64,000 nt of DNA, taken from Eledone cirrhosa. Its lineage: Eukaryota. The notes beneath the pieces are model-generated. The model was not told the DNA's origin and made no database searches. It saw only the letters and a list, made by a program, of their open reading frames with translations. The stretch's first letter is position 1. Each line of letters starts with the position of its first letter. Positions 17,418 through 45,500 of the stretch are shown piece after piece. The DNA is taken from assembly GCA_964016885.1 (NCBI GenBank), contig OZ024752.1:744001-808000 (forward strand), read 5' to 3'. The translations under genes and the position numbers were made by a program.

Positions 17418-17513
17418 TTATACAACGATAGACTTGACTGCCAAGCTAGCCTTTTTCGATTTTGATACTTGTTCAATATTCTTTTTCTTTGCATCTATTT
17501 TTATTTCTTCACA
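17418..17513 (-). CDS. HORMAD1: HORMAD terminal exon (CEEIKIDAKKKNIEQVSKSKKASLAVKSIVV*), closure-motif-like tail
   Basis: atttcag acceptor, 96 nt including TAA; basic-basic-x-S tail like HORMAD closure motifs; ATTAAA at 17392-17397. Confidence 0.78.
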   Translation of the reverse strand, partial: CEEIKIDAKKKNIEQVSKSKKASLAVKSIVV

Positions 17514-20090: not shown

Positions 20091-23000
20091 CAGATCATGG
20101 TGTTCTTTTTGAGGCAATGTGTCATAGCCAATTGCCTTTCCTGGCATCAACCCTTTTAACCGTTTAGTGTTTACATTACTCTATATATACTATTGTATTT
20201 TCACAGTAAAGGCTTTATCTCACATAATATTGAATCTATGAGGTTTTTATATTATTTATTGTGGGAACAATACCTTAACATCAATATGAATGACCAGTTA
20301 CAGCCAGTTTGAACAGAAAGAGGTGAGAAAATGTTGGCCAGATATGGCCGGTCTAAATGCTAAAGGGTTAATGACATTTGACAACACACAGGCATATGAT
20401 GTACAGATACATATAGAAGAATGAATTTATTTCTATTAAAAAACATAGGGTCAAAATTGAAATAAAGACTAGTATAACTTACTGAAGGTCCTGTAGCCAG
20501 CAAACGTTTCCTTCTTGTAACAGGTCCAGTTACGGAAGTTGGATTACTCTGTATAAAGAAATACAAATACATAAACAATGAGTGTGTGTGGGTGTATTTA
20601 AAATTGAAATATATACTCCATATAAATTGTAATTTTTTTACTTGGAGCTGAAACTACTCTTTATTACTATCTGAACACACACACACGCATGCGTATGTGT
20701 TTGCAAGTGTATATGTATGTATATTTCTTTATCCCAATCATCATCATTAACATCATCATCATTTTCACTGCTGCTTTCCCATGCTGGGATGGGTTGAACC
20801 ATACATATATATACATGGGTGTTTTTTGTGGAGGTATATGGCATAGTAGTTAGGTTATTTGGTTCATGATCGTAAGGTTGTGTGTTTGATTCATGCCTGC
20901 ACTAAGGAACACATTTTGTCCTTGAGCAAGATGCTTTATATCCTGTTGCTCCAGTGGTCTGAGGACTTATCACAATATCATTAATACTACAGTATTAATG
21001 ATATTGAAAGGTCTGGTAACAGATAAGGCTGGATTTAGACTCTGGGAAGCACAGGGCAGTTCAGGTTTAGTGCCCCTTTCATATAACATCAAAAAGCACT
21101 TCAAGGCCACTTTCCCTGCTAAAGGTTGACTTTGCAGATCCCATGACAAGCTTCTATACTTTGCCATATTAATTATATTCTCCCTCAACAATACTTTAGT
21201 TTTCATCTCCTCCACCATCATCCCCAGAAATGTATTTTTTCATATTTCTCTTTTCCTACCTCCTCCTACTACATTCCTTCAGTTCTCTCCCCTAAGCACT
21301 TTCATCCTTTCACTATACATGACCCAAATATCTCATCCCAGCAACAATTACTGGCTTTATTCCCAACATCTTCTCCAATTCATTGTGTTATCCTCTCTCT
21401 GAGCAATACCCCACTCACCCACCTTATCATTTTCAATTTTGCTCTTTCTCTGGTGATCCACATTCTGGATGATGTATTTCACCCATTTCTTGCTCCCATA
21501 AATCATGGCATTTCTCAAACACACATCATACATGCTTCCCTTCAGTTTCAGTGACACCCTTCTCCTCACTAACACGTCACTCAGTTCCCAGAACTTTTCT
21601 AATTCTTGTGTATCACCCTCTTCTTTGTTCATTTCTTCCTGGGAGGGTCAGGAGTTTAGAGTACTCAAATACTCCTTCCAGCAGGTCCTGTCAGAAGCAA
21701 TTATCTTCAATTGATCTGGCTGTATCCCCAAGCAAGACCTACCAATGTTATCCAACCATCTTGCTTGGGGTCTACCCCTGGGTCTCCTGCCAATTGGTTT
21801 TGCCAGTAAAATCTGTCCAGCGATTCTTTCCTGAGACATCCTAACCACATGTCCATAATATGAAAGCTGTGATCTCTCAATCAGAAAAGTAGCAGCTCTA
21901 CCTGGAGAAATTCTCTGGTCTCCAAGCTACACACTCTATTAAGTAACATTACTCATAAAAATCCCATTTCAGACGCTTGTATTTACAATCATATTCTTTT
22001 GGTCATTACCCAAGATTCATTACCTTCAGTAAGGGTTGACACGAATATGAAATTGAAGATAGCAACTTTGGTTTTTCCACTTACCTTCCTTCTTCTGATG
22101 GGGGGTAGGTGCCTATGAGTCCCACATGACAAAAATTAAAATTAAAATACACAGCAAATTACCAAACGTTTGATGAGGGAGAGGGCTGTTTGAAGAGGAG
22201 GAGACCTGTTCCTAGAGGAGGGGTGTTTGACGGAGGGCCCAGAGTATTTGCTCCTTCCTCCATCTAGGTAGATAAAAGAAAGGACTAAATTCATGATGAA
22301 TATATATCATATTAAAGGAAACATAATATTGAATTTAATAAGCTTTTACCATTGAGCAATTATTTTCCTTCCCAGATTGTGACATTACTGATGGACTGTT
22401 TTCCATTATTGACAGTTCTTTGGTGTTTTGGGATAACTTATCAATCTGGAATAAAAATATACAACCATTTTGAAAGAAAAAATGTTTAATATAATTAATC
22501 TTATAAATATTACAACCATGTAATATACTAACTTTGATGTTCATTTTCAACATGTATTTTAAAGAATAATTCACCCAAATTTTAAGGATAACTATGAAAA
22601 TAATTATATTTAATGGAAAATATTCTGAGTCAGTCTTTTACATATTGTGTATTGGCTCATTGGTCTGATGTCACATTTGAAGAAAGAAAGAGCAAGAGAG
22701 AGAGAGAATTAAGAAATGGGTTAAAGGAAGAGTATACATACAGAGTAGAGTTAAAAGCAAATAGAGAGAAATAGAGAAGCCAAAGAATGCTATACCAGAA
22801 CATGAGTACACACACACACACAAGTAATTGTGCTTGCAGAGCATTTGTATGAGGTTACTTTATCTTTTCATCCTTTTCTTCATTCTTTTTGACAAATATA
22901 TATTCCTATTCTTTCTTTTTTCTCAAACCACTTCCTTCTTTAATACTATATAGTGTTTGAGTGTGAGCAATATTATAAATCCTTTTACTCAAGTGCAGGC

Positions 23001-26000
23001 ACTGTGAATTCATTAATTTATTTGCATATATTTTTCTTATATTTATACATTTTTATTTATTTACCTACACAGAGTTGCAAATGTATACTCCCTGAATGAC
23101 CTGTCATATGATGCGTAATACTTAAGTACAGAAATGATAGGCACTTTCAATTATTCAGAAATATTCTGATGGATAATTATATTTTTGTAAATTTAACACG
23201 TGGAATAACAATATTAATTATATAAGTTGTGAGAATTTTAAAAATCTTATCTCTGAAATAAAATAATTGTTTCTACAATAGGCACAAAGCCATCAATTAT
23301 CCCAGTGTATTACTGGTACTTTATTTTATCGACCTCCATTAGGATGAAAGGCAAAGTTATAAAATAATGAAATAAAATATTGATAATGTTAATTAAATAG
23401 TGTAATACAAGTTCATTTTATTACTGTACATTCATGTAGATGCCTCCCCACTTGGAATGTAATTATATAAATAATTGGTAGAATGTTTAGGTTAATGCCT
23501 TCTAGTATTTAGCTATGTCCTTTTACAATCTAAGTTTCATGTTCACAGGAGTCATTAGAATAAGTACCAGTCATGTACTGTGGTTGACTTAATTAATTAT
23601 ATCCCATTCCCAAACTTTGTAGCTTTGTATCAATATTAGAAATCATATTATTAATGAAGATGACATTGAATATATTTATAGCCGTGTTAGATTTGCAAGC
23701 ATTTCATGTATGGGTGTAGAATCAGTTTTAGTTTTGGCAACAAAAAAAAAAAAAAAAAAAAACTGTTGCAGAACAAGAAGAAGAAGCTAATTTGGCAACA
23801 CAAAATATTTGCTACATACAGAATAAAGATTATACAAGTTCTTACACATGCTTTAATGTATGTCAGTCATTAAACTTATGTTAAAATGAAAATAGCTGAA
23901 TTAATACTGTGAACATTTCTGAAATCAATCAAATTTAAATATACTTTGAAAAATCCTTTTTGATTTTATGGATTAAACCAACTTACATTATTATTATTAT
24001 GAAACTCTTCTTCTGTTATATTTTTCCAAATATTTCTACGTAAGTATTTTTGCAAACCTGCTTCTAATTTCTTCGAATCCACAATCTTGGTTGATCTAAA
24101 ATCATATATATATATATAGAGAGAGAAATGAATATTATTACAAATAAAGAATAGTGAAAAATTTCTGAGAATTAAGTTTTATATATAACTAGACCACCCA
24201 TGACCCATTGGGTCATGTTCTCTTAAAAATAATTTTAAAATAATTAAAATATACACAGACATGTATCTCTTTCAATCTACTCTCTCACAACTTTTTCTCT
24301 ATCTTTCTCTCTCTCTATTTATGAAGGTAACCGGAAAGACCCTGTATCTTGGGAACCAGTGTTCTGATTCACGCGAAACTTGTTTTATTCCATTTGTATT
24401 CCCATTTCAGGGTCAACTTCCTTTCAAAGTATTTTCCCATTATGCTCCATTTCGGCTGTATCAAATTATAGACGAGACACAATCATAGAGCTTTAGTAGT
24501 ATATAAATTTCTGTATAATTTAGATATTTTTTATTTATTCATATGAAATAATGTATGATATAATTACCGTTTTAATTTTCCATTTGTATTTTTTTTAACA
24601 AAGCCTTCACTTTCTAGCCTATGAAATAAACCATGGGCCACAGTATTTTCCAAACCTAATTTCTTAGTAAATTCAGGAAGTGTAATCTTGTTCTCTTGAG
24701 TACAAAATAAAAGTGCTCTTCGCCACATACATGTAGTCTAGAGTAATAATAGAAAAATATAAATGTAAATCATTTCAGTTTTTTTATTTATAATCCAACT
24801 TTATGTATATATAAAGATAAAGGCACACTAGAAAGTAAAAATCTACTAATATATAATTTTTTTCTATTTTCGGCACAAGGCCAGCAATTATCCCAGTGCA
24901 TTACTGGTACTTTATTTTATCGACCCCGTAAGGATGAAAGGCAAAGTTAACCTCAGGAGGATTTGAACTCAGATCATAAAGGGACGTAACTCTACGCCGC
25001 AAAACATTGCTCTTGTGTAGTTGTCCGTCACACAAAGGGAGGTAACTCATCTACAACCACATATACATAAACGGACAAATTATACAAAATAATTTTCTTC
25101 TTTTTGGCCCAAGTGCATTACTGGTACTTTATTTTATTGATCCCGTAAGAATGATGCCATACACTCACATCTATGTGATGAGTGTTGAAGGAAGGGGGCT
25201 GTGACAAAGTATAGAAAACAGCGAACAATGTGTGTGCATGTAATAATTATTTTCTTTAATAAGTCTGTTCATGTATATGCTTGTATAATTTAACAGTTCA
25301 TACATGTGCCTAATATATTTATTTAAGAAATGTATGTAATCAATTTTAAATTGGGAGTTTTTACATCAACTATAAGTCATGACCTGCTTTATGTGGCTTT
25401 AAGTCATATGAGTTTAGGTTAGTTTCAGTAATGGAGAGTGCAATTGAAAGGAAATGTTGTTTAGCGAGAGAAAGACAGACCCTTTTTATATAGTTGATAC
25501 TACAATTAGCCATCATTTTTTATGGCACAAGGCCAGCTAGTATAAAATAATATACTATTTCATGAAGGAGTAAATAATATACTATGTCACAAAATAGTAA
25601 ATAAGCAACATAATATTATCGCTAAACCTCAAGTCATAAAAAAAAAATCAAGTTTTGTTTTAAACAAACAAACCATAAATTTATATACAAAGAACTCAAA
25701 TTTTAATTCCAATCTTTTTTTAGATTTTAAAATTTTAATTGATAAAATGTTTTTTAAAAAAAATAGTATTTCTTTGGGATTCATTTTTGATGGTTGACGA
25801 AATGGCATTTGGATGTATTTTATAGTGACTTTATTTCTCTCATCTAGTGTCTTTCAAATATATTTTAACAAATGACAATGGTAGGTATAATTTGTGATTA
25901 TTTTGTGTTAAAAAAATTGCAATGCTTACCTGTAAACTTGTGGGAGACAATCCTATCAAACTTGGATCTGTAGGATTCTTTCGCTCATATCCTGGCTAAA

Positions 26001-29000
26001 ATATTATTAAAAGCTAAATTATAGTTTTTATTATAGTTCGCTCAAGAATTCAAAATATACCTAAACCTATTTTTTAGAAATAAAAATGACAACGTTTTGA
26101 AAAAATTAGTATTCTTTATAGTAATATGAAATTTCATAGATTTAATATATAATTCAACATGAATAAATTTAAGAATTAACTAATCTTATGTTAAAAAGCA
26201 AGTGTGTGTTGTATTTATAGAATGCTATTTAGAAACAGGAATAAATACCATCTTACTACTAACATAATGAGTGATTAGAAACTAAGAAAGATTCAACCTC
26301 AAAGTGGTTAGTAGATATGTAGTTAACCCTTTTATATCAAAACCGACCGTGGTTCTATGAAGCAAAACCATCCATTTCAAACAATTCCTATATAAATTTA
26401 TATCTTCCAACATGATATTATATGAACCATATTTTAAGTTATCATATTAGGAACGAAATAATTGATCATTTGAGTGAATCCTTCAAAATTCTGCATTAAT
26501 TAATTGAAAGAGAGTATATTTCATTAATACAGTAATGAAAGGGTTAATCAAATTTGGTTGGCTATGCCCAGGCACTGCTATTAATGCTTATGCTGCATTT
26601 GTTCAGTTTAGTATTGATGCAGCTACCCTCATATGTATCATTGTGGTGTAGGTTTATCTGGAATCTTACACAGTAAAATGTTAAAGTGATGCTTGGTTAT
26701 ATAAATTTATTGAAATCTTTCTACTCCTCACAAAACCCTCATGGTTTTTGGAAAGAGATTGAAAAGTTGATGTCCTTTTCCAAAGATTCCTGGAAGTGAC
26801 TACTTTCCTCAAAATGTGAAAACTGACGCAACATATCCTATCCATTGGGGGGAAATAGAGCACAGTCTGTCTGAGCACTTGGTAGAGTGTGGGAATATAT
26901 GTAAGCAAGATACAGACCCTTGGTTAGTGGTTCTGCTTTAGTACTGACTTGATTTGTGATGATCCATCCAACTCTTGCTAGCAGGGAAAATGGATGTTAA
27001 ATGATGATGATGATTATATCTCTGATTTCACAAAACAGCAATGCTATTGAATGATGCATTAGAGAGAAACTGATTATGTTCTTAGATGAGAATAATTTAA
27101 TAAGTGATACAACAGTTTCCATATAAGTAGAAGCTATTTCAAATAGCATTACAACTAGATGTTAAAATAATTTCTCAACCGATCAAATGTACATGTATTA
27201 TATATGTACTTTAAATATCTAAATATTTAAAAAAGAACATCAGCCTTGGGCTAATATATCACAGTATAACTAATCTCAGCATAGCTGGAAAGAAGTTGCT
27301 ATATGATATTATAAGAGACAAATGTCAAATTGTTGCAGCCAATATTATCTTTCAAGAAGAATCAACAATTCTAAGTGGAATGTTCTGAAGAACTGTCATT
27401 ATTACTTTTAAAATCTCTTTCTGATATATCTATGGTTATTAAAATAGCTTTTAGCATGGACTTTATATGCTAAGTGCCTGGCAAAAAAATGTAGGAATAT
27501 TGTTGAGTTTAAGCTAGCTGACAAATAGTGTGGTTTTTGCTTCATTCTGTAGCAGGACTTTGAGAAATCGTGGGAGCATTGCCAAGATTTATATGTTTGT
27601 TTTGTGTACCTCAGAAAGGCATATGGCCATATTCACTGGATTTGTGGAAGGTTCTGCAAGAGTATGAGATCAATGAACAGCTTCTTGTTGCCTTGAAGTC
27701 CCTATATAAACGCCTTAATATTTTTGTTTAGATAAATGGTGCTAAGTTGAAACCGTTCAATGTGGGTATCGGACTTTGTCAAAGACGCTGATTGTCAGCT
27801 CTACTGCTCATAATCTTCATGAACAGGATTGACATGCACAGCCAGGTTGGAAGTGGTATTAAAATCAGTTGGTGTAAGATCAGTTGGGTAGAATTTATAG
27901 AAGATATGGTGTTACTTAAATCATTCAGATTTCCAACATGCAGTTGATAGGTTTGCTGTTAAGTGATGCATTGCTGAAACGAAAATCTCTCAAGAAAGCC
28001 TGTGCAGTGCCCTTTGCATGTGAGTGGTATTACACTGAAGTAGGTGGAGAAGTTCAAGTATCGCAGGGCCATTTTCATAAGTGATTGAAGGCTGGACGCT
28101 TAATTAAATGCATACATTTTTGGAGTTGGTGTAGTAATATGCCAGCTTCAGCACCTGGTCCTCAGAAAAAGGGAGGTAGAAGTAAAAGCCAAACTCACTA
28201 TCTTCAATTCAGTATTCGTGCCAACTGTTACCTATCTTGACTAATGACCAAAAGAATACAATCATGAATACAAGCAACCGAAATGGGGTTCCTCTGAAGG
28301 GTCTTTGGAATAACATTACTCAGTAGAGTGTATAGCTCAGTGATGAGGGAGTCACACTAGATAGAGCTGCTGCTTCTCTGAATCAAAAGACCACAGCTCC
28401 AGCAGTACAGACATGTAATTAAATTGTCTAAGGAAAGAATCACTGGACAGATTTTATTGACAAAGCCAACTGACAGGAGAGCCAAAAGGAAATCACAAGC
28501 AAGATAGTTGGATAACATCCATGGGCTTTGTTGGTCTACCTCCAGAATTCAGTTAGATTATTGGGAGATAGTTGATTCCGATAGGACCTTTTGGAAAGTG
28601 TATCTGAGGACTCACAACAGAAATGACAAAGACTGTAAGGGCTGGTGCTATGGTGTACTGGTGAAGATCTGGTCAACAGCAAACAATATGGCCTGTTTTA
28701 TGCATGTGGGCCCAACACTCCTTAGAAGCTATCCTCACTCTCACTACACCTGTACCCCACCCATGCCCATTCTAGCATTCATTAGCTGCTGCCTCCATCT
28801 AAAGCCCTTAGATACCTATTCCACCTGAGTAGCTTCTCTCTTCCTCCTATGCACCCATCCACAACACTTCCCCTTCCCAGCACTGGGGAGTTCCACCCCT
28901 ACCCCAGCATAACGACCAAACCATCCACGCCCCCACCACCTTTACCAATTCAGTATTTTTCATCACTACATACCTATCCCCATTAATCACCCAGTCGAAT

Positions 29001-30500
29001 CACACTATTCTGGCCATAACGTTGTACTTCTCTCCTGCCTATTGCCCCCACCCCACAGAGCAGAGGGCCAAACACTTCTCTAGCCTTGGTGCCATGTAAT
29101 GCACTTGGCAGATCCTGTAAGGGGGCTGCAAAAGGATGGGCACCTGTAGAAACGATGCCTAAAAAAGAAAAGGGTTGAGAAAACCCTTCAGTCATGTCAG
29201 TGCAACATCTTCTCTATTATTGGTGATCTACATGATAAACACACCCAGTACATACTGTAAAGTGCTTGGTGATAGGACGGGCATCCAACTATAGAAAGCT
29301 TGCCAGAAGATTTGGAGGACCCTTCAGTTGTGTCAAATACATGACAACCTCTCCTGTGCACTCAGTAGAATGTGAAACCATGCATAAGCAAGATGCAGAC
29401 CCCACTCCATAGTCTGTCTGGAAGGTCAGTAGCTCTGCTTCAGTACTGATAGGTCTATGTTTAACCCTTGCTAGCAGGCAAAGTGGATGTTAAACGAGGA
29501 CGATGATGAGATAGTTAATTAACCCATTGTTTTACAATCATTAAAAAAATAAAAAAATCCTCGATTAGGTAGAATACTAATTTGTAAATGTATATATATA
29601 TCATCATCATTTTACGTCCACATTTCCCTGCTTGCAAGCTTGCAAGGGTGGGGTGGGTCCTATTCAGCACAGCATCCCTCCATTCATCACGGTCCTTCAT
29701 CATCGCCTCCGTGAGCTTCAGCAATCTGAGGTCAGCTCTCACCACCTCCGCTCATGATTTTCGTTGTCTTCCTCTACTGTGTCTTCCTTCTACTGGGATT
29801 TCTTGGCACTTCTTTACCCAACAGTCATCCTCCATGTGCATCACATGTCCATACCAACACAGTCTTCTCTCCCGCACACTACAGCTTATCCCTCTTATAC
29901 ACAGTTTCTCTCGCAAGTCGTCTATTCTTAGTCGTTCATGCACATTGACATTGCACATCCAACGGAGCATGCTTGCTTCATTTCTCTAGCCATCACATCT
30001 CCTCCACGGTTGCTGCCCATGTCTCACTACCATGCAGCATCGTGCATCTCACACAAGCATCATATAACCGGCTTTTCGTTTGTAGGGAGAAACCTTTCTT
30101 TGTCAACAGAGGCAGCAGCTCCCTAAACTTCTTCCAACCCATCCTTATTCTAGATACTATGGCCTCGGAGCACCCTCCACCCTTGCTAATCTGATCACCA
30201 AGGTACCGGAAGCTATCAACCACCTCTATAGATCCTACCTGCATTTGAAAAATGTGTCTATTACTGTGACTTCTACTGTCAAATTTCCCTGAACATCTAC
30301 TGCATATGTAGTTTTCCCTACCTGTTAGTTTGCCTGCTATCCCACTACATCTCTTGTGTACCCAAGATCTGCATTGTCTACATTTTATAGAATTTATGCC
30401 AACTCGTTTCTACATTTCGAACATGGCCATTTCCTTGATGGAAATATATATATATATATTATAAACACAAATAACCAGACTAGACATGTTTCATTTGTAT

Positions 30501-30534
<34 letters not shown>

Positions 30535-33500
30535 TATAAAAATGGCAATATATATATATATAAGATTCTTTGTCTGTCTGTCTTTTTCCTTATTCATTCT
30601 CAAATGGCTCGACCAAATCAAATTAAATGTTATAAGGTAATAGACCCCGGGATTAACAACATGTAATTTTTATTTTCATTTGGATTAAAACAATATAACA
30701 TTTTATCTAAAATATTCAACTATAGTCAACTATAATAAACGGACATTTTATAACACTATGACGACGACAATGACATCACATTTTGTATATGAGTGGGTAT
30801 GTGTTTGTGAGTGTGTTTTTACACATTTCCTATGTACGTTAGGCCTTAGTAAGTTACATACACATACATCTTCATGAAAATATTTAATCAGGTACACAGA
30901 GAATTAAACACACACACGTGATGACAAATAAGTATATGTGTTGAGTGTATGTGTGTGTGAGTATACATACATATCTGTGATAACTGACATAACGAAACCT
31001 GGAGGTGAAACTGTGTGTGTTTGTATGAATATATGTCTGTGTGTGTTTTTTTATAAGTGTATGTTTGTGTGAGTGTATGTGTGGCTGTACATGGGTGAAA
31101 CTCTGTGTGTGTTTGTATGAATGAATGTCTGAGTGTGTTTTTTATAAGTGTATGTTTGCGTGAGTGTATGTGTGCTTGTTCGTTTATATTTATATTCTCA
31201 TCCTGTTAAATTAGCAGCTGATACATTTGCTTATATTTGGTTAATTTATACTGCATACAAAAATAGTAATTAATATATATTTCTTTTGGATGTTGATACT
31301 TATTTGTTTACAATATTGAAAAAAATGTTTTTATTCTAAAAATTCCTCTCATACCTATTTGAATTTAAGAGGCTTCAGTTTCCAGTCAAACTAAGTTTTG
31401 TTATTTCAATTAACAAATCTTAGGGTCAATCCCTCCAGGTAGTTGGACTTGATCTCTCTACTACATGTTTCTCCCATGGTCAACTTTATGTTGGTTTCTC
31501 ACGAGTTGGAAGCAGCAACAATTTATTCATTTGGACACCAACAAAAAATTACACAATGAATATTGTTTACCCAGAGGTGCTTCAAGATTGACAGATTTTC
31601 ATTTCTATATTCTATTATCATTACAATTCTGATATTTGTTTTTATAAAATATAGATATTTTAAAATAATTATGAGAAAAAAAAATATCTTCATATTTATT
31701 GTTTACCAATCTGGATAAGAACAGCTGTAATCCGGGCAAAGCTGGGTCGTTCAGCTAGTATATATATATATATTATAAAAGATATATTAGTAAAATTAGT
31801 AAATATTAGTAAAAAAAAAAAAAGCTATTCCTACAAACCTCTGCACAAGATTCACAGACATGATTCATAGGAATGTCATTTTCTGACAAGATCTTGAAAC
31901 AAACAGCATGTTGCCAATAGTTACAGATGTCACAAAGTATCATCAAACCATCCTCCTGCAAAAAAACAAAAAGTAATTGTATTATAGTGATATCTCAGTT
32001 TAAGGTGAATTTAGACTCGTTAACATGTGGGAGTTCAACACTTACATGATAGCATGTTTCACTGTAAGGTGAATTTAAATTCTTGTTAACATGTGGGAGT
32101 CCAACACTCACATGATAACATCTCACTTACATACAATCTCAAGTCCTACTGATTACACAGAAGATGTTGACAAATGAAACGTCCTCCCAATCATTTGTTT
32201 AGCAAGCTTTCTACAGCTGGATGCCCTTCCTATTACCTAGGGTAGTACGCAATGCGTTTTCAGATTCAGAGTTGGTACAGTACTTAGTAAAATAGCAACA
32301 GAGACTTATTCTGTCTCAGTTGGCCAGCAAGCTTCTTCAGCAAACACCTACTGTGTGTTGGACCTCCATTGGTTTTGGCGACAAGTGTTCCAGTTGATTT
32401 GATCAACAGGACAGTTTGGTCAGTGACTGAGCATTCCACAGACACATGTACTATTAGCATAGTTCTCAGGGAAGTTTAACATGATACAGGGTTTGACACA
32501 GCTGGCTCCTTTGAATTCCAAATACAACTCATTTTTACCAGCTGAGAAGACAGGAGCAACATGAAATATTGTGTCTTTCTCAAGGAAACAATGTGCTGCT
32601 AAGAATCGAACTCATGATTTTACAATTGTAAATCTATCATCCTAAAAACTAAGCCATGGGACTTCTTCAAAACACCTGCTACATTAGCCATTACCATTCC
32701 ATCTTTGTTCAGCCATTGTGTATAGGAAAGACTACGTTATACAAATGAATCTTTTTGGTTTTAAGATGGTAGGGTGTGACTTTGAGAGAGATTTGGTTGG
32801 TATTTCTAGCAACCATGAAGTTATGAGTGTCCATTACTAGAAAAATACTGAAAATATACTAGAAAAAATAAAAAATAAAGTATCTTTAGCATTTCTTTTA
32901 CCTGATTATAACCACATGGGCAGTTTTGAACATCAAGATTGTTATTGGCTTTAACAGGTTTCTTAGAAGGACCTAAGGAAAAAAATGTTTTTGATATAGG
33001 AATTTTTATTCTAATATAGAAATTGAATACAGAAAAATGCATATAGTAATTATGAAACGAATTGTATTAATCTTGTGGTAAGATCAACAATGTTTTCCAT
33101 TTGCTCATACTATATAAAAAGACAAAGAGAAAAAAAAAGATGGAATAATTAGAGCAAAATTGAATTGAGGAGGAGGTACAGATGACCAAAAACGTCATTA
33201 AGAAGATCACAGAATGTGTGATGAAAGAACTTTGCCAATTAAAAGACCATTTGGTTGCTAAACCAAATGATGAATGAATTAGTTATCTGACTAATAACAG
33301 TTTCTAATTTAGGACCAAGGCTAGCAATTCATGGGGAGGGGACAGTTAATTATATTTACCTCAGCATTTTACTGGTAGGATGACCCAGAAAAATGAAAAA
33401 CAAAGTTGACCTCAGGAAGACTTGAATTTAGAATGTAAAGAGCAGGAAGAAATGCCACATATGATTTTACTTAACGCTCTAACTATTCTGCCAATCCACT

Positions 33501-36500
33501 TCCTTTAGTTGCCAGGCTAATAATGTTTTCTGATTTTGGGGAGGGGAAAGTCGATTAAATTGACACCAGTACATTTCTGGTACTTTATTTTATATTGCCT
33601 TTCATCAAAGGCAAAGCTAACCTCAGAATGTAAAGGGTCATAACTCTATGCCACAAGGTGTGTTGTCCAATGCCCTACCATACTGCGAATCCACCACACT
33701 CATCATCTTAGTAATAATAATTGTTTCTACTTTTTGCACAAGGCCAGCAATTACCCCAGTGCATAACTGGTGCTTTATTTTATCGGCAAAGTTAACCTCA
33801 AGGGGATCTGAACTTAGAACACAAAAGGCCATAACTCTATGCTGTGTCATGCTCGTAGTTGAACAGTAGTGTAAATAACATGGGGTTGAGAAGATTCTAA
33901 GTGCTACTGAGAACATAACCTCTGTAATGCTGGTGCAATGAAAATAGCTACAACAAATCAAGCATAAATCTAACAAACAGAACAAAATTGGTTTCCTAAT
34001 AGATGCATACAACTAAAGGATCTAGTACATGAAAGGATTTGCTCTGTTTAAAGTTACTAAAAATAAGTTTTTAAAAATACAGAAATATTTACCAAATGAA
34101 CTATCCAAATTTGATTTAGAGTATGTCGGATCAATGTGAAATTTTCCTCCTTGCGTGTTACTTTCATTTATGAGCTGAAAAATAAATACAAAAAATTCAT
34201 TAATATATAGAAATCAATTATTTTACATGAAAATAATCTGACCTAAATTATTAGAATTACACAACAGTATAGACATCAATATCATCAACATCACCAATTT
34301 ATGTCTATTTCCCATGTGTGCATGATTTTTATATATGTTCTGTTTGGATTTGTCTTTTGAATATTATTAGAGACTGCATATGATAACCTGGATAGAAAAG
34401 TCTATTTCTAATCCCAGTTTAATGGCAGTAAGGCCTCAGCTACAGATAGTTCTTTTGTAGTTCCAATGCAAGTGTATGAGTATTTCACTATAATTATTTT
34501 GGACCAATTCCGACAACCCTGCCTTGGAATTCTTGGTCCCTGTACCACCTTGTTACTCACAACTATCAGTTGGTCACTAGCATGAGGGAGCTCCACAAGT
34601 GGGAAAAGCTATTTCAATATATCTTACTTGCTATCCTCTTGGTCAAAGGTTCTCAACGGGGGCATATGCAGCCCTAGGGGCGTTTCGGAAATCCAGGGGG
34701 GCGTTTGGGAGCAAGGGGGCATTAGGGGGGGGGGGGCGTTTGGAGCTTTGGAGTGCACTGGAAGGCTCTTTACTTTGGTAAGTTTTATAAGCCAAGTTTT
34801 ATAAGTTTTATAACCATTTGTATGTCTTTGAGACAGCCAGTGTGAATGCATTTGAATGAGCATGCAGACAGCATAACTATGGTCTGACCGCAGTTGTGAG
34901 CAGGTGTGCAGGCGTGTTTAGACATTAACCGGCAATTGAGATCCTAACAATGGAAAAACCCACAGTCAACTGGGTCAAGGACACTTCAATCGCAGCCAGT
35001 TAGAATCTTGTCTTTCCTTCACCGATAACAATGTATTTCATGTCTGAAATTATTGACTCAACTGTAACGAGTTAACACTATGTAGATCTATTTTATTTCC
35101 TATCGTATAGATAATATTACAAATAAAAAAAATAAAAAAAACACAGAAGCGGGTAGCACACACATCTAGGACCACATACAACACATAATCAGATAATACT
35201 CACATCTAGGACCACATACAACACATAATCAGATAATACACACATCTAGGACCACATACAACACATAATCAGATAATACACACATCTAGGACCACATACA
35301 ACACATAAGCAGGTAATACACACATCTAGGACCACATACAACACATAAGCAGGTAATACACACATCTAGGACTACATGCAACACATAAGGAGGTAGCACA
35401 CACATCTAGGACCACATACAACACACAGGCAAGTAATATATACATTTAGGACCACATACAACACATAAGCAGGTAATACAAACATCTAGGACCACATACA
35501 ACACATAATCAGGTAATACAAACATCTAGGACCACATACAACACATAATCAGGTAATACATACATCTAGGACCACATGCAATACATAAGCAGGTAATACA
35601 TACATCTAGGACTACCTACAACACGCAGGCAGGTAATACATACATCTAGGACCAAATACAACACACATTGTATCATGTGCTACGGACGACGCTAGAGCAA
35701 TGGTCAGCCAACATAAGGGTTTCGTCAGTCTTCTGAAGAGAGAAATATCTGTATTTGTTGTTCATTGTGTCATTCATCGACAACACTTGGCTGTGAAGAA
35801 ACTCAGCAAGCCACTGAGCAAGTCCTTGCAGGTGGCCCTTGATGTCATCAATTTTATCAAACGGCATTCCCTCAATGAACAAATTTTCCGGCAACTGTGC
35901 CAAGATAATGACGAAGAATTCGTCAAGTTGCTCCTTCATAATGAAGTGAGGTGGCTTTCAAAGGGCAACTGCCTTACTCACTTCTTTGAACTGTTTGACT
36001 CTATCATTGAGTTTCTGCGAGGACGCAACACAGAACTGTACAAGAAAACCCTCGATGTGAGGCAAAACTGTGCCTACCTCACCGACATCGTCAACAAATG
36101 CAATAGCATCATTTTGGCTTTGCAGGGGAAGAAGATCACCTTGCTTAAAGCAAGGAATGCTGTGAAAACATTCCTGGCCAAATCGAATGTCATCGAAAGG
36201 AATCTTTGTTGACAGGAATTCTATAATTTTCCTAGTGTCGCCAATGTTCAAAACATTGTAAGCGATGACCAACTCCAAATTTATACCGCTCACCTCCGTG
36301 CGCTACAAGACAACATGAGAGAACGGTTTGTCGACCTTTTGCCGATGGACATCCCAATGTGGGTAGCAGATCCCTTCATAGCTAACGTCGATGATTTGGA
36401 CGTTATATTTCAGGAAGAATTCATTGAACTTCAAGCAGATGACATGATCAAAATTAGATTTCCCAAAATAGGTGAACCCCTTTTTTGGATACAAGAGCAA

Positions 36501-39500
36501 ATTTAGCGTCGATTTCCACACCTACATGCAGAGGCTAAGAGATTTGCTCTGCCTTTTCCAAGCTCATACTTAGTCAAGAGGAGGTTTGGTGCTGTTTCCA
36601 GACTGCACAGTAAGGCTCACAACCGCTACAATGTAATTACATGTGGAGATCTCCGGCTACATCTTACGAAAAATCCAACCTGACGTCAAAGAGTTAGCTA
36701 GACTCCATAAAGTTCAAGGGTCCCATTGAAATGAGGTCAAAGTTAAAGTAAGTTGATTTATCTGAAAACTTAGATATGCTATTGTTACAAAACAAACTAA
36801 CAATTTTTTATATTTGTAGTTGCAGTCTGACTGGACTGGAAACCATCTACTACAATTCACTTACTCATTTGTTGTATATATTTTACCATTTATTAATAAA
36901 TATACCCTCCCACGTGGTCATGAAAACCCTCTTCCGTGGTCCCTAAGTTCACAAAGCAGAGGGGACATCAAGTTAGATATCAACATTTATTCTGTCTGTT
37001 TCATTAAAGGGAAAATTGGAAAGCTTTGAAATGATATAATTGCCACTTTCTTCCAGATAAGAGCACTCTTTGGATAGACAGAGTTGCTCTTGTATAAATG
37101 TTCAAAATAGTTGGTATCGCCTGGTGGGAATATAACAAATTCAACTGGTCCTTATTCATAAAAAAGAACATTTATGTTCCTTTTTTTTAAATTTATATAT
37201 TTCCTTTCAAGGAATGTATTTATACTCTCAGCTGCCTGCAATGGTATCTTTGGAATATTGTTAATCAATTTTTTAGTAATCTACAGATATCAAAATCAGT
37301 AGTATATTGAAAAAATAGAAAAATAGGGTAGGGGGGAGGGGGGGGTTGTGATTTCGAGGGACAAAAGGGGGCGTTTGGCCTAAATGGGTTGAGAACCTGT
37401 GCTCTAGGTAATGCTTTTTCCATTCTGTCCATTGGGAACGTACAGCAGCATTTGCCTGGAGTTCTACATGTCAGAGAACATTCTCTCACACTGTCTGGGC
37501 TCATATCATTGAGGTAGTGATGGTATGGGTTCCTGATATCTAAGTTTATATTTAAAATATGTTTGACAATTCCACAATGCTACATCAATCTTAAAGGGGT
37601 TATTAGACACCTTTCTTAATTTGTCATGATTCACTAGCTCTATACAGACATTTATTGTGGGTACTGGGTTACCATAGGCCTGATTAAACAAATTACTTCC
37701 TTTCTTTTTTTAAAAACCAGAACTTCATCTGTGACAATATCCTAAACTTCTAATGAAATGTGCAAACAGCACCATAATAGTAAGTTTGGTTAGTAGAAAT
37801 GATAGGTGAGGGAGAAGTGCAAGATTTGTGATGTAGTGTGTATATGAACTGTAAAAGGTCAATAGATTCCACATCATTTTAGCGAATGTGAAATGAAAAG
37901 GATTCACAATTTCAAGACTTGGTATTTAGTATATTAAGAATCATATACAGCCTTAGTAACACTGTTTCCGTGGTAAAGAAAGTTCAGCACCCACTGTATA
38001 CTCAGAATATTAAGGAAAATGTATAATCCTGCTCAGATGTTCACCAACTTCAATGAATGTATAACAGAACATTGTAACCGACTACATTACATTAGCATAT
38101 CATAACTACTTCCTATCCAATCAGAAAAAAAGTTGTAAAAGGTTCATAAACTACACAAAATAACATTAATATCCTACTTCCATATATGGAAGAGGCTTAC
38201 TAAAATTTCATCATTTACTAATATATATAAATCAATAATCAAATTTTTACATTTATGATTTTTTAAATTATAATATAAAAAGAATATCAGTTCTATTGCT
38301 TAATCTAATACAAATGAAAAGTGCTATGATTCAATTAGTAAAAATAAGATATATAATCTATATGAAAGAAATAATAAAGTTCTGCTTGAAATTTAAATTT
38401 TCACCCAGCTCACAAAATAATATTCTGCTTTGAGTAGAGGATGGCATTGCCAACTGGCCAGACTCTCCTCATAATAAGACCACCCAACTCCATACTGTAA
38501 TTATGGTTGGCATTAGGAAGGGAATCCAGCAGCCATAAACACCCAGCCAAAACATGGTCCCACTATGTGCAAGGTATGGCATGGTCAATTGGTCAGACTT
38601 GTCCCATAATGATGCCACCTAGTTCCACACTGTAAACGTGTTTGGTGTTAGGAAGGGCATCCAGCAACTGTAAAAATCTAGCCAAAACATGGTCCTACTA
38701 TGAGCAAGGTACAGCACAGCCAACTGGCCAGATCTCCATCATAATGGGACCACCCAGCTCCCAAAATAAGGTTCCGCTATGAGCAGGGTATGGCACAACC
38801 AATTGGTCAGATTTGTCTCTCAAAGGGACCACCCAGTTCCACTCAGTAAATGTGGTCGGTATTAGGAAGAGCATCCAGATGTAAAAAAACCCTGCCAAAA
38901 TACAGTTCTGTTTGAGCAAGGTACTACGCAACCAACTGGCTAGACTTGTATCTTAATCTGGATGACCTATCTAACCCATGCAAGCATAGAAAAATAGAAA
39001 TCAAACGATGAGGATGAGGATGATGGTGATGATGATCAACAATTTAAAATTATGATTATGTGAAAACATTTAACCTTTGTAGAATTACAGCTTTTCCCTA
39101 ATGTGTTTTCTATGTTATCTTTTTCTTCAAACTGTTCTTTATTGGTTTTAATTCTCAGTTTAATTCTGAAAAGATAACATAAAACTAAAATGTTATTCAT
39201 ACTATATCATTAAGTAAATGTCAAAGTAATAAAAGATGTTGAGTGTATAATAAATATAGAAACAGTTCACAAGCTTGTATTAAAAAATGTGAGCATTATT
39301 AAAGTAAATATTGCAATTAACATTATTAAAGTAAATATTGCATGTAACATTGGGGAATTGGCAGCATAGTTACGTCCCCTTACGATATGAGTTCAAATCC
39401 AGCTGAGGTTAACTTTGCCTTTCATCCTTACGGGGTCAATAAAATAAAGTACCAATAACGTACTGGGTAATTGCTGGCCTTGTGACAAATGTAGAAACAA

Positions 39501-42500
39501 TTATTAAAGTAAATATTGCATGTAACATTATTAAAGTAAATATTGCATGTAATATTATTAAAGTAAAAAATGTGTGTAATATCATTACAGTTAATAAGAG
39601 TGTTTAGTATGAAATATTTTGTATTTATTTTAGAATGATAGTCTTGCTAATTCCATTAATCTAATAATATTTTAAGACCTTCACAGTCTCATCCTCAGAA
39701 TGGAAATGCTTATGATTGCAAAGAATCATGGAAATACAGGTAAAATCTTCAAACCTGGATTTACACAATGATTCAATGGTTAAATGCAGGTAGATTTCAT
39801 GGTTAATTTCACGGGTGCTGTATATGTGTGTTGATTCTTGGTTTGTATTTTACTATTAGTAAAAGAATAACACCTGAAGGTTACTAGATTAATGGATATA
39901 GTAACACTATTGTTCCAAACAAAACATAAAGGACTAATAAGTAAATAAGAAACATCTTTCATCACTGTATATCTAATGAAATACATTCTATTCTAATTAA
40001 TTAATTAACAATTTTGAGGGATTTACTAAAATTATTAATTATTTCATTACTAAGATAGTAACTTAGTATAAGGTTCATATATATAAAATTATGTTGGAAG
40101 ATTTTAATTTAAATTGGAAAACTTTAAAATGGGTGGTTTTGTTACATAGAACCAGAGTCAATAACTTTCATAACATGGTCCATCAACTTACCTGTTTGTG
40201 TGTGTATATATGTACATACATACATATATACACACACACAAAAACATTCACCAAATTGAAATAAATATTTTGATTTATGAATTAAAAATTTTCTTATACT
40301 TACAAATGAAATGGCTGAAAAGAAATAAGAAATATTAATCATTAGTGATATTTATTGATAAAATTATAGTTACTAATTAGTATTTGCATTAAATTTATAT
40401 TAAAATATTTACTGTGGTAAAACTTATTTACATTGCTTTAAAGCAGTGATTCCACACGTGGGGTGCATGCCCCACAGGGGAGCAATTTGAATATTCAAAG
40501 GGACAATTTAAAAATGATGTTAATGAGAGTAAACTTCGGGTTTTATCTTATTACTTTTACACCAAGGCAACTTTGGAACAAATTACTGTCGGAAACTCCT
40601 GACTCACCTCCTCTACACATGTTATTGTGCATCTGGCATCACCCATATGCCAATTTGTTTACACTTTGTAGTTGATCATTGCTGTTTTTATATCAAATGT
40701 TTGAGATGTTGGGGTGGTGTATGGTGCAGCACAAAAGGTTGGGAACCACTGCTTTGAAGGCAGTGGATTGGCAGAATTGTTAGAGTAGTGGATAGAATGC
40801 TTTACAGTACTCTATGAGTTTAAATACCACCAAGGACAACTTTGCCTTTTATCCTTTCAGTGTTGACAACATAAATTACCAGTTAAGTACTGGAGCCGAT
40901 ATAATCGACTCACACAACTAAAAAAAAAAGTTACTGGCCTTGTGCCTAAAGAAGAAATTAATATTTTATATTGCTTTTGGGAGGCAGTGGATTGGCAGTA
41001 TTGGTAGAATGTTGGACAAATTGGTTTATGGTATTTAATTATGATTTACTACATTTCTGAATTGAAATCTTGCAAGGTCAACTTTGCCTTTCATCCTTCC
41101 AGTGTTGATAAAATAAGATACCAGTTAAATACTGGGGTAAATTTAATTCATATCCTCCTCCCCTCATAGTGTAGGCATGGCGCCTGAAGTAGAAACCATT
41201 ATTCTACATAGTTTTTGTAACATGTACAAACTATATAGTATACAAGATCGCAAACAATGTTGATTACCAAAAGATAATACAAGTAAACAAAAGAATAATA
41301 GTAACTATCAATGTAGAGGTTATGTTTATAAAAGATATGCAATGAATTTATTTTAACTAGAATAACACTTCTTATAATTAATTTATAAGCTGTGACAGTG
41401 ATGTATTTGTTTTGCAAGTTTTTTGATATGAGATCATGCGTTGAAACAGATATTGTTATATTTGGGGAGGGTCATGTTGTTCTAATATTGCCAGAAAAAT
41501 ATAGTAAAACACACTCACTGTTTGGTTTGGTTTTCGCTTCAGTATATTTTTATATCTATATTTATATCTATATTTTTTAACTGTTGGTCAATCAATAATA
41601 AACATTGATTGCCAGCTGACGTATTTATAGAAATATAAACACATACTGAAGCAAAAACTAAACCAAACAGTGAGTGTGTTTTACTATATTTTTCTGGCAA
41701 TATTAGAACAAGTTCAAATCCCGCCGAGGTTAACTTTGCCTTTCATCCTTAAGGGGTCAATAAAATAAAGTACCAGTAATGCACTGGGATAATTGCTGGC
41801 CTTGTGCCAAAAGTAGAAACAAATATTAGAACAACATGACCCTCCCCAAATATAACAATATAATTAATTCAATTATCATACAATATGCAAACTTACAGTG
41901 GAGACATTTCCCATTTTAATATTCATTGGTTCTTCAAATTGAAAATTATTTGAATTTGTTGTCTTAAATCCTGGTGGTTCATAATCAGCAGGGGTAACTA
42001 TAAGGAAACCATGCAATTGATTAAAATAATTGATAATGTTTGAGAATCGAAAATATCAGAAAATTCCTCGGAAAATTTATAGTGACATACCATTATCATA
42101 ATAAAATAGCTTTATTGTCATTAAAGCTTCATCTGGAAGGGGTTTTAAAGTCTGTGTAAGGACTATGATTGTTCTCAATAGCTGGATTGTGGCTTTCTTT
42201 GTGTCATTTGCACTATAGGCACTTGAAACTTTGGTGTTATTTCTATAAATGTAAATGAAAATTTGATTATGGTATTATAAAACGTACTAATGATAGCAAT
42301 CCATATTTACAAGACATTTTTCAAAGCTTGCATTGAAACAGTTAAGTTCTATAACAATAAAGTCTGAACAATAACAGAAATACTATCAGAAGATAGAAAT
42401 GCTGAACATCACCCTCTTTCACAATTTGCACTTGTGTTTCAATTTTCACAAAAAAATAGTGAACAGCTAATTGCAAGACTTTCAGTTAATAGCAGTTTAC

Positions 42501-45500
42501 ATTTAGAAAATCTAATTGTAATTGCACATGTTTTGAGAAGCTATAGAATTAATTCCAGTTTTGAGTCTCAAAGTCTTATCCTGTAGGAGGAGCTCTGTGA
42601 AAGACATACATTACTGACAATTTAGCCAGATGTAATTTTGGATTTAATGAAGCTGCTGACCTTGCTATGAACAAGAACAAATGAAGAAAGAAGATTGGTC
42701 AGTGTTAAGTGTATAATATATCCTACATAGTGGATATCCCTTCTGGAAATACAATAAGATGTTAAAATATGAAGATGAATGATGATAGTTAGTCTCGATT
42801 CCAAATGTTTGTCTACAGGTGAGTTTTGTGTATGCTTTATTACCCCTCTTGCACTTTACAAGATCTAACTTTTTAAAAATAACATACTGATTTTCAATTA
42901 ACCTTATATATACAAAGTTTCTTTAATTTTCCTGCATTGAAAATGTTCCTTTATCAAGGGATCCTTATTATTTGGAATAAAATATAGGGTGTATGAAAAA
43001 TTATGACATGTAAGTATTTTTCATGATATTGTTCCAAGATACATATTTATATAATTCCTTAAATTATTAAGGTTTACCAAGGAAAAATAACTATTTAAAA
43101 ATTAATCAATAATAAACATAATATATAGATCACCCCCTTCCCTCCTACTCATCAAACTGCCAAATATGTCAACATACGTCAACATACTTATCATCCTATT
43201 CTTCACCCCACCCTAAAGGGGTAGAGAGGGCTCTTCAGTCAAATCAATGACAGACAATCTACCAAGTGCTGGTGCCATGATAAAATGAATTTGATAGAGT
43301 GCAGAAACATACATAAGTGAGATGAACCCCCCCTGCCCCACTATCAAATTCCAGCCAGGTTAGTAACCCCAATTAAGAACAGAGTTGGTCTATGATAACT
43401 CATCTAAATCCTGCTAGCAGGGAAATGAATGTTAAATGATGACGATGATAATGATAGATTTGATTTTTTTATATTAATTTTCTTTTTAGAATACAGGAAC
43501 ATGAACAGAAAAAAAAATTCTACATGTTTTTAAAAATCTTTATAAAATAAGCATCTTTGTATTTGATTATATTTATAATTACCTATATATATCAATTCCA
43601 CTATCCATGTAGGAAAACTTGAATGTATAAGATTCAATGATACTCTGGAAGAAAATATTTAAAAAAAGATTGTATATCAAATTTAAAAAGAAGTAAATAT
43701 AATTAAGGTATTTTGATAAGCCTAAACAGTTTATTTCATTGACACTAACAAATATATCTCAATATTTTTTGTTTGAAGTTGCTGATAAATCCTAGAGATT
43801 TGACATGGCTTTAATTCCAGAAATTGTCATTAACATTATTAAAATAGTAGATATTGTGATACATTTTTGGCTATCTCATTGGCATGTGGTGTCCATGAAA
43901 GATCCTCAGAATTTGTTAGGAATAACATTTTATACACACACACACAAACGATGATGATGATGATGATGATATATATATGGTAAAAAGCAACAACCTACAT
44001 GAGGTGCCTCTGATATGACTATCAGAGGCACCTCATAGAATAGTCTAGCAGAATAGGTTGAATCCTGCTTGTCTCATAGTAAGGATTAGGATCGTGAACA
44101 CCAGTGGCTTTGCAGATGATTGATTATTAATTTGGCAATAGGTTGGTACAACTCCTCCAGTTAGCAGAGAAATCTACCAGTATGCAGGTGTGGCGAGCTG
44201 TATATATTCTAGCTATTAGAAAAAGCAACATGAATGCTTCACCTTTGAAAGATGGATAACTTAAGAAGAAGAAGAATATTTAAGTTTTATAAAGTTTAAG
44301 TAATGTGTTGTTCATAAATAAGGTTCAAATGTAAAGTTGTAGATGTGCTTATTTGATAGTGTAGCAATTGCATGTTGGTGCTGTTGAATTTGAATAGGCC
44401 ACTATTGGAAGTGATTTTTAAACCACTTTCAAAGAAGTGGTACATGTTTTTGTGTGAGATGTCAAAGTTGTTTGTAAATGGCACCTCTTTTGTAAATACC
44501 ACCATGGGAAGGCAAGTATCATTTATATTGGAGTATGACTAGAGAATAAATTCCAAACCTGGAAGCAGGGACTAGAGAGAAAGGGCCTCAAAGTCAACAT
44601 GACAAAGACTAAGGTCCTTATAAGTAGACGAGAAAACAGAACCCAGATCCCCTCAGGGAAATGGCCTTGCTCAGTATGTAGGAAAGGTGTAGGTAGGAAC
44701 TCCATTCTTTGCCCCAAATGCAAACAATGGGTACACAAGAGATGTAGCGGGATCTCAGGAAGCTTAATTAAGAATGTAGGATTCACATGCAGCAGCTGTG
44801 CTGAAACAGCAAGCAAACAGCCACAGGAAACAAGTACCACCAATCTCTGGGAGGGCCCTGTAGAAACAGTAGACAGCTTCTGCTACCTAGGTGACCGAAT
44901 TAGCAACGGAGGTGGGTGCTCAGAAAGTACAATAACTAGGGTAAGAACGGGATGGAAGAAGTTTAGGGAACTACTACCACTGCTAGCTGCAAAAGGCTTC
45001 TCCCTCAGAATGAAAGGCAGACTGTATGATGCGTGTATCCGAACAGCGATGTTGCATGGTAGTGAGACCTGGGCGCTGAAGGTGGAAGACTTACGTAGAT
45101 TAGAGAGAAACGAAGCCTGCATGCTCCGATGGATGTGTAACAGTAATATACGTGAACGACAAAGCATAAATGAATTGAGAGAGAGACTGAGCATAAGAGG
45201 AATCAAATGCTGCGTGCAGGAGAGGCGGTTACGCTGGTATGGACATGTGATGCGTATGAAGGATGACAGCTGCATAAAAAGGTGCAGAGCACTAGAAGTT
45301 GATGGAAACCGCGGAGTGGGGAGACCCAAGATGACTTGGGATGAGGTGATAAAAGCCGACCTTACCCAACTACACCTCTCAAAGTCAATGACACACGACC
45401 GTGACTTCTGGCGTCACGCAGTAATACAGGGTACCCGACCTCCCATGGGTACATGCTGAAGCATATAAACAATATGCCCCCCCACCCCCCCACCGCAAGG

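Follow-up and report, generated by a model that had tools for sequence, protein, structure and literature searches.

According to Rodriguez et al. 2025 (PMC12365614), animal chromatin-binding regions (CBRs) made of a PHD finger and a winged helix (wHTH) have been solved and assayed in meiotic HORMAD proteins of Patiria miniata (crystal structure 9MYP) and of a lophotrochozoan, Schistosoma mansoni (9MUG). Both proteins bind DNA and nucleosomes in vitro, and mutation of Trp and Arg residues of the kind treated below abolished DNA binding or lowered nucleosome binding. The authors report that neither histone-peptide binding nor a preference for H3K4me3 was detected in vitro, and put forward an in vivo test in an animal, the sea star, as future work. 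They describe the CBR of budding-yeast Hop1 as similar overall to the animal form (rmsd 5.3 Å over 128 residues), but with an added HTH-C, a PHD pocket that has degenerated, and bent DNA held on a non-canonical surface. The survey of Milano et al. 2024 (PMC10907721) finds the PHD-wHTH in 12 of 14 HORMAD-bearing invertebrates, proposes a shared opisthokont origin of the CBR, and lists no mollusc. In yeast, the CBR runs parallel to the Rec8 cohesin route and does not replace it. A literature search, to which most subscription journals were closed, found no paper on a cephalopod HORMAD in meiosis or on a mollusc meiotic HORMAD with a PHD.

We analysed a 64,000-nucleotide stretch of the Eledone cirrhosa genome, called the window below, and describe the anatomy of a HORMAD gene within it, the identity of its domains, its orthology, and its retention of residues assayed in other animals. 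Exons 12 to 16 of this gene very probably encode the PHD and winged-helix CBR of an intact octopod meiotic HORMAD in the ancestral animal form, a region that would bind nucleosomes at two points in meiotic prophase.

The HORMAD gene and its HORMA domain

As predicted from genomic DNA, this is an intact octopod gene encoding HORMAD, a protein of the meiotic chromosome axis. It lies on the minus strand in 19 coding exons, with junctions defined by splice signals and orthologues; all 18 introns run GT..AG, in compatible phases. The coding sequence of 1623 nucleotides is free of stops up to its TAA and gives the 541 aa that the preliminary description had announced. The exons, in window coordinates, are:

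53125..53166, minus strand: coding exon 1, aa 1-14, ATG at 53166; 14/14 identical to the O. sinensis protein P0001; GT donor
50405..50549, minus strand: exon 2, HORMA, aa 15-62; Pfam HORMA 9.8e-9; AG/GT
48699..48799, minus strand: exon 3, HORMA, aa 63-96; Pfam HORMA 7.2e-6; AG/GT
47534..47554, minus strand: exon 4, 21-nt micro-exon, HORMA, aa 97-103; tblastn; AG/GT
46687..46713, minus strand: exon 5, 27-nt micro-exon, HORMA, aa 104-112; AG/GT; P0001 match in global alignment
43583..43644, minus strand: exon 6, HORMA, aa 113-132; octopod protein match; splice sites
42091..42242, minus strand: exon 7, HORMA, aa 133-183; Pfam HORMA 1.3e-10; one genome match
41897..41997, minus strand: exon 8, HORMA, aa 184-217; Pfam HORMA 6.1e-5, slightly below cut-off; splice sites
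40304..40314, minus strand: exon 9, 11-nt micro-exon, aa 218-221; sole AG..GT-flanked pattern match in the window's minus strand
39075..39165, minus strand: exon 10, aa 221-251, where HORMA ends and the linker starts; octopod protein match; splice sites
34093..34174, minus strand: exon 11, aa 252-278, linker predicted to be disordered; protein match; splice sites; orthologue model pLDDT <50
32902..32972, minus strand: exon 12, aa 279-302, with Q294 at pocket position III and the first PHD ligands, C296 and C298; splice sites; DNA contig
31839..31955, minus strand: exon 13, PHD core with C310, C313, H318, C321, C336 and C339 and pocket residues E303, M307 and W316, aa 303-341; Pfam PHD_5 5.6e-8; 9MUG 1e-15; 9MYP 1.8e-13
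25930..25995, minus strand: exon 14, PHD-wHTH connector, aa 342-363; tblastn 71% to P0001; splice sites
24568..24737, minus strand: exon 15, winged-helix core with R403 and wing, aa 364-420; 9MYP 1.5e-14; 9MUG 4.1e-7; one genome match
23987..24095, minus strand: exon 16, wing end (K423) and last wHTH helix, aa 420-456; octopod protein match; splice sites
22350..22445, minus strand: exon 17, tail with short conserved helix, aa 457-488; splice sites; orthologue model
20483..20548, minus strand: exon 18, basic tail, aa 489-510; octopod protein match; splice sites
17418..17513, minus strand: exon 19, aa 511-541, with the predicted closure motif at the C-terminus, TAA stop; splice sites; alignment; orthologue model

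Three octopod proteins align to these exons in identical order. The window protein shares 421 of 537 residues (78%) with its O. sinensis orthologue P0001 and 72% with Argonauta, and a tree of HORMA domains groups it with Octopus sinensis and Argonauta at 99/99, in keeping with an earlier presumption that the DNA came from a cephalopod. The proteins of O. sinensis (HORMA domain-containing protein 1-like, XP_036358603.1), Argonauta, and Sepia are direct orthologues, and precomputed annotation gives all three the same architecture of HORMA and PHD_5.

By its sequence, the N-terminal HORMA domain belongs with the meiotic HORMADs. Four exons match Pfam HORMA, the best match of the O. sinensis orthologue is human HORMAD1 (1e-70), and the modelled orthologue fold superposes on human HORMAD1 8J69 with Z 29.3 and rmsd 2.2 over 218 aligned residues. 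At the other end of the protein, a tail motif is common in alignment to the window protein, Pecten, Owenia, Patiria, and a sea cucumber; in the orthologue model, the C-terminus has pLDDT >90 and lies over the closure motif in 8J69. Prediction of a complex between HORMA domain and motif scored 0.53 against 0.02 for the best control; at least 89% of the contacts recurred between runs, and partner pLDDT was at least 60. Of 78 solved pairs 51 attain the mark applied, as do 2 of 108 mismatched ones; passes at 0.60 or less, however, comprise only 5 of the 78 solved pairs and all four mismatches that passed, and a textbook closure-motif pair may pass because the predictor has memorised it. This lends the predicted closure-motif complex weak support.

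The PHD finger and winged helix

A single linker exon (exon 11) separates the last HORMA exon from exons 12 to 16, which are in phase and encode a complete C4HC3 PHD finger and then a winged helix, just as had been proposed from the letters of the window; the limits then given, 23987..32972, coincide exactly with the outer edges of exons 12 and 16. The eight ligands (C296, C298, C310, C313, H318, C321, C336, and C339) form two zinc sites, C3H and C4, with the spacing of the S. mansoni ligands given in PMC12365614, and are invariant in 87/87 rows of an alignment (A2) whose rows were picked for having a PHD. Exon 13 taken alone matches Pfam PHD_5 above its cut-off, as well as 9MUG, and exon 15 taken alone matches both 9MYP and 9MUG. 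Because each of these exons matches by itself, chance does not explain the assignment. In Pfam, the wHTH exon has no specific match, only sub-threshold ones to IclR and MarR. A transposon origin of the finger was rejected, since exon 13 carries the PHD_5 profile and its best matches are HORMAD structures.

Over the CBR, the window protein is identical to Patiria at 74 of 146 positions and to a Schistosoma protein at 60 of 133 (45-51%). Structural models were computed for two Octopus orthologues, P0001 and P0006, whose CBR is identical to the window model at 121 of 151 residues. In these models the winged helix is packed on the PHD, and the CBR superposes on 9MYP with Z 21.0 (rmsd 2.2, 151 aligned) and on 9MUG with Z 20.5 (rmsd 1.8, 147 aligned); the next match in the structure search reaches only Z 10.1. 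Patiria W376, R463, R477, and R480 align to W316, R403, R420, and K423. Four of the five published wHTH Arg positions are Arg or Lys in the window (R403, K419, R420, and K423), while the fifth, R389 of S. mansoni, is His both here and in Patiria. Domain order, C4HC3 spacing, fold, the Trp, Met, and acidic residues of the pocket, and the basic wHTH residues are alike in the window protein and the two known structures. The differences are Gln at pocket position III, where those have Ala or Val, Glu rather than Asp at position IV, and a wing three residues longer in alignments.

By analogy with the sea-star and Schistosoma proteins, bipartite binding to histone tail and DNA is likely. The winged helix would contact DNA with the wing and recognition helix (R403, K419, R420, and K423), and the PHD would hold the histone H3 tail (W316, M307, and E303). 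The HORMA domain, judging from its family, would clamp closure motifs of an axis-core protein or of its own C-terminus. We propose that the CBR would anchor the protein to chromatin in addition to the cohesin/axis-core route, and that such an anchor would therefore bias the sites where axis protein and breaks accumulate. The preliminary description, which had the axis protein loaded directly on chromatin, put this too strongly.

In animals, a HORMAD with the PHD-wHTH is the ancestral condition, and it has been published for other species. The module is likewise retained by orthologues from a scallop, a nemertean, an annelid, and a cuttlefish, so that cephalopods, together with scallop, nemertean, and annelid, join the animals with the ancestral HORMAD chromatin reader. 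Because most invertebrates keep the module and it has been described before, the window HORMAD is ordinary. The preliminary description had set it apart from the usual animal models. This is right for vertebrates and C. elegans: HORMADs of mouse, human, zebrafish, and C. elegans are without the module in the published survey, and vertebrate HORMAD1/2 and C. elegans HIM-3 and HTP-1/2/3 share with the window protein the HORMA fold and the (here predicted) closure motif but have lost the CBR. Vertebrates and chromadorean nematodes are thereby confirmed as exceptions; the contrast does not extend to animals at large, given the 12 invertebrates and two crystal structures cited above. The current model is unchanged, and targeting of breaks by H3K4me3 in vivo is no easier to test here than in the proposed sea star.

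The methyl-lysine pocket in octopods

Pocket counts were anchored on the alignment, with positions III and IV mapped from the text of PMC12365614. Three of the four positions fit expectation, with W316 at position I (Trp expected), M307 at II (Met or Leu), and E303 at IV (acidic). Position III, where a small hydrophobic residue is expected, falls by sequence register on Q294, two residues before the first Cys. It is Val or Ile in 75 of 87 aligned relatives, unlike the octopods, which have Gln here, Lys in three Octopus proteins (O. sinensis included), and Cys in Argonauta; the cuttlefish Sepia has Val.

One reading of these residues is that the octopod pocket has drifted, leaving a module whose main role is DNA binding by the winged helix while the zinc finger is structural, or one that reads a different state of the histone tail. 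Decay of the pocket is common in the HORMAD family: no more than 52 of 87 rows have Trp at position I. Against this reading, W316, M307, and the acidic E303 are all retained, loss of the Trp reduces nucleosome binding in Patiria, and a Val one residue upstream could occupy the site through a one-residue insertion, as in the Owenia alignment. We consider such drift rather unlikely. It is a still more doubtful suggestion that octopods remodelled the methyl-lysine pocket (Gln, Lys, or Cys at III in place of Val or Ile) and acquired a histone-mark preference unlike that of other animal HORMADs. If true, octopus and cuttlefish would make a natural pair for asking whether meiotic breaks are directed to H3K4me3 chromatin by HORMAD. 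The altered residue is itself a small natural variant usable in binding assays.

Type of the chromatin-binding region and continuity of the gene

The preliminary description called the region Hop1-type. A PHD and a winged helix do occur together in one meiotic HORMAD, and the order of HORMA, PHD and wHTH, and closure motif is common to the window protein and yeast Hop1, which, with the overall similarity of animal and yeast CBRs, could speak for a CBR of the budding-yeast type (PHD-wHTH-HTH-C). However, the confident fold of the orthologue models ends near residue 445, where the animal structures that lack HTH-C also end; beyond that point come only a single short helix, of lower confidence, and disordered sequence. 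The tail is identical at only 41 of 84 positions between two octopods. The HTH-C extension, about 85 residues folded on the wHTH, is thus not predicted here. The pocket Trp and Met and the canonical basic wHTH residues are retained, in a pocket that is mostly intact where that of yeast is degenerate. The yeast Hop1 CBR is not among the fold-search matches listed or the top 60 profile matches, an absence that excludes nothing. A yeast-type region is very improbable, and the one encoded here is better described as the holozoan PHD-wHTH type, whose mode of binding differs from that of budding-yeast Hop1.

Database models without the HORMA half, P0002 of O. bimaculoides (360 aa) and P0006 of O. 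vulgaris (295 aa), suggest that the PHD and wHTH exons could form a gene or isoform of their own and that HORMA is expressed separately. This is extremely improbable. The two short models resemble P0001 at 85-100% and have the look of incomplete annotations, splice sites are continuous and phase-compatible through all 19 exons, and O. sinensis, Argonauta, and Sepia have full-length models. In addition, a 559-aa relative (P0005 and P0009) has both halves on Logan contigs that measure only 2.1-2.3 kb and from their size are likely to be spliced transcripts.

Searches of the genome with exons 15 and 7 gave one match each, with 2 and 3 candidates scored, respectively, and so found one locus; because so few candidates were scored, a distant paralogue may exist. 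DNA contigs from one sample, which may be the assembly's own source, span exons 12 to 15, and none of the listed differences falls inside these exons; exon 12 has no other letters in its covering contig. No RNA sample is listed as carrying the sequence. The three sequence runs that do carry it look like DNA from a single sample, and of the 15 joints shown not one corresponds to a predicted intron; they have no bearing on expression. A partial copy of exon 2 was also seen, which could be a real copy or an assembly artefact. Elsewhere in the window there are two further PHD-like motifs, both inside LINE-like fragments.

The gene model and its exons

The HORMAD gene lies on the minus strand, in AT-rich and repeat-rich surroundings of a 3.0 Gb genome. 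Exons were located by six-frame reading and by tblastn, with three octopod proteins as queries. Nineteen coding exons run from 53166 down to a TAA codon at 17420-17418 (minus strand); all 18 introns are GT..AG with compatible phases, and the spliced model is stop-free and yields 541 aa, the length first claimed for the protein. The feature runs from the first base of exon 12 (32972) to the last base of exon 16 (23987). Splice signals and orthology speak for the predicted junctions. Searches of the genome (G000) with a wHTH exon and with a HORMA exon each matched at this locus alone, among the 2 and 3 candidates scored. DNA contigs from one sample, possibly the source of the assembly itself, cover exons 12-15 with no listed difference inside exons.

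Three micro-exons of the HORMA domain may account for the truncated database models P0002 (O. bimaculoides, 360 aa) and P0006 (O. vulgaris, 295 aa):

40304-40314, minus strand, HORMA-domain micro-exon, 11 nt
46687-46713, minus strand, HORMA-domain micro-exon, 27 nt
47534-47554, minus strand, HORMA-domain micro-exon, 21 nt

A stretch around one of them is missing from a further database protein, P0004, as well. Immediately upstream of exon 2, at 50622-50780 (minus strand), is a 159-bp tandem copy, identical to 50436-50594 at 156/159 positions. It spans the acceptor of exon 2 together with its first 37 codons, and ends where the intron sequence of the second copy starts; possible readings are a pseudo-exon, a recent duplication and an artefact of assembly.

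The window also holds mobile-element fragments. Those at 29996-30409 (minus strand, intron 13; Pfam PHD 1.2e-5) and 44539-45459 (plus strand; Pfam PHD 8.7e-7), which we take from sequence likeness to be LINE-like, carry PHD-type fingers of their own, decoys that could mislead gene prediction. Intron 10 includes two adjoining frames (35637-36506, plus strand) that resemble a broken hAT-type DNA transposase; a Pfam search of them gave no match. Intron 1 contains a 385-aa open reverse transcriptase frame (51882-53039, minus strand; Pfam RVT_1 4.1e-26).

HORMA, PHD and winged-helix domains

The window HORMAD is real and was rightly read, an expected addition to a class already described and structurally solved. 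It is identical to the O. sinensis HORMAD P0001 at 421/537 positions and to Argonauta P0003 at 363/507. Identity to P0001 peaks in HORMA at 92%, drops to about 80% in PHD plus wHTH and to about 50-57% in linker and tail, and is 76% over the last 17 residues. In an 18-row HORMA tree the three proteins group together (99/99), with a cuttlefish-like protein as next neighbour. The chromatin-binding region (CBR, PHD plus wHTH) is identical at 73/143 positions to Pecten, 73/145 to Tubulanus, 79/149 to Owenia and 74/146 to Patiria.

The preliminary description had proposed a complete C4HC3 finger followed by an HTH-like block, and both are borne out. Eight zinc ligands on exons 12-13 (C296, C298, C310, C313, H318, C321, C336, C339) have the spacing of those in S. 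mansoni; exon 13 by itself matches Pfam PHD_5 (5.6e-8) and the S. mansoni CBR structure 9MUG (1e-15), and exon 15 by itself matches the Patiria miniata CBR structure 9MYP (1.5e-14) and 9MUG (4e-7).

AlphaFold2 models of the orthologues P0001 and P0006, read as stand-ins for the spliced window protein, have three confident parts: HORMA, the CBR (about 300-445) and the C-terminal 18 residues. The modelled HORMA aligns with human HORMAD1 8J69 (Z 29.3, rmsd 2.2, 218 aligned) as far as the closure motif. The predicted CBR matches the fold of 9MYP at Z 21.0 (rmsd 2.2, 151 residues aligned) and that of 9MUG at Z 20.5 (rmsd 1.8, 147 residues aligned); the next-best fold match, at Z 10.1, is a long way behind. 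A complex predicted from P0001 10-235 (HORMA) and window exon 19 (closure motif) scored 0.53 against 0.02 for the best control, with contact agreement of at least 89% and partner pLDDT of at least 60, which weakly supports it: in calibration 51/78 solved and 2/108 mismatched pairs reach the mark, and scores up to 0.60 include only 5/78 solved pairs but all 4 mismatches that passed. As HORMA and closure motif are a textbook pair, the score may reflect complexes already known to the predictor.

Proposed chromatin binding

According to Rodriguez et al. (PMC12365614), wHTH binds DNA with a Kd of 16 uM and Arg mutants abolish binding, W376A or R480A weakens nucleosome binding, and neither peptide binding nor H3K4me3 preference was detectable in vitro. 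By alignment, Patiria W376, R463, R477 and R480 correspond to window W316, R403, R420 and K423, and S. mansoni R407 and R389 to K419 and H398 (also His in Patiria). Most likely, HORMA would clamp axis-borne closure motifs, and the CBR would grip both the DNA and the H3 tail of nucleosomes, an extra chromatin anchor alongside cohesin. In yeast, CBR and cohesin routes operate in parallel, according to PMC10907721.

Decay of the PHD pocket is the foremost alternative, and an unlikely one. Pocket position III, placed two residues before the first Cys following the text of PMC12365614, is Q294 here, Ala in Schistosoma and Val in Patiria; cephalopods have Lys (three Octopus proteins), Cys (Argonauta) or Val (cuttlefish). 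Val or Ile occupies it in 75/87 rows of alignment A2, which were picked from PHD-bearing matches minus a few very long ones. Q294 may arise, judging from the alignment, from a one-residue insertion displacing a Val. Because the pocket often drifts in this family (52/87 rows have Trp at position I), Q294 is best read as a minor variant. Yeast-like binding is highly improbable. Rodriguez et al. (PMC12365614) stress the contrast between the animal mode and that of budding yeast, in which HTH-C, an extra part of Hop1, and a non-canonical surface bind bent DNA. A split gene we consider scarcely credible. A 559-aa relative has HORMA and PHD on Logan contigs of 2.1-2.3 kb, likely spliced transcripts because the gene spans 36 kb here, and the two halves are therefore likely on one mRNA in that relative.

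Spread across animals and a motif in exon 17

Milano et al. 2024 (PMC10907721) infer an origin of PHD-wHTH in the opisthokont ancestor, with losses in vertebrates and in chromadorean nematodes; among the 17 invertebrate species listed in Table EV1, PHD-wHTH is present in 12, the gene was lost from 3 and the CBR from 2. None of these 17 is a mollusc, and Octopus, Lottia, Crassostrea, Mollusca and Capitella do not occur in 8 of the paper's supplement files (file 7 aside). A literature search of limited coverage found no paper on a cephalopod or mollusc HORMAD.

Of 2496 cluster representatives for P0001, we scored the best 150 against window-model segments. HORMA+PHD+wHTH was found in 49, HORMA+PHD in 47, HORMA only in 48, PHD+wHTH in 4 and HORMA+wHTH in 2, counts in which single-sequence detection underestimates wHTH and fragments are included. 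Names were looked up for 20/150, plus P0003 and P0004. Among those named, carriers of all three parts include Pecten, Tubulanus, Owenia, Schistosoma, Paragonimus, Apostichopus, Sanderia, Procambarus and Strigamia; only HORMA scores in sturgeon and Tasmanian devil.

Past the wHTH, exon 17 (22350-22445, minus strand) encodes a short helix motif at aa ~456-469. The motif is common to CBR-bearing invertebrate HORMADs and appears weakly in CBR-less ones, sturgeon HORMAD1 included. A literature search on it found nothing. It reaches at least 5.3 bits in 6/37 CBR-less proteins versus 1/1850 shuffles, with human HORMAD1 aligning there below threshold; a conserved partner-binding motif that survives CBR loss is one possible reading.
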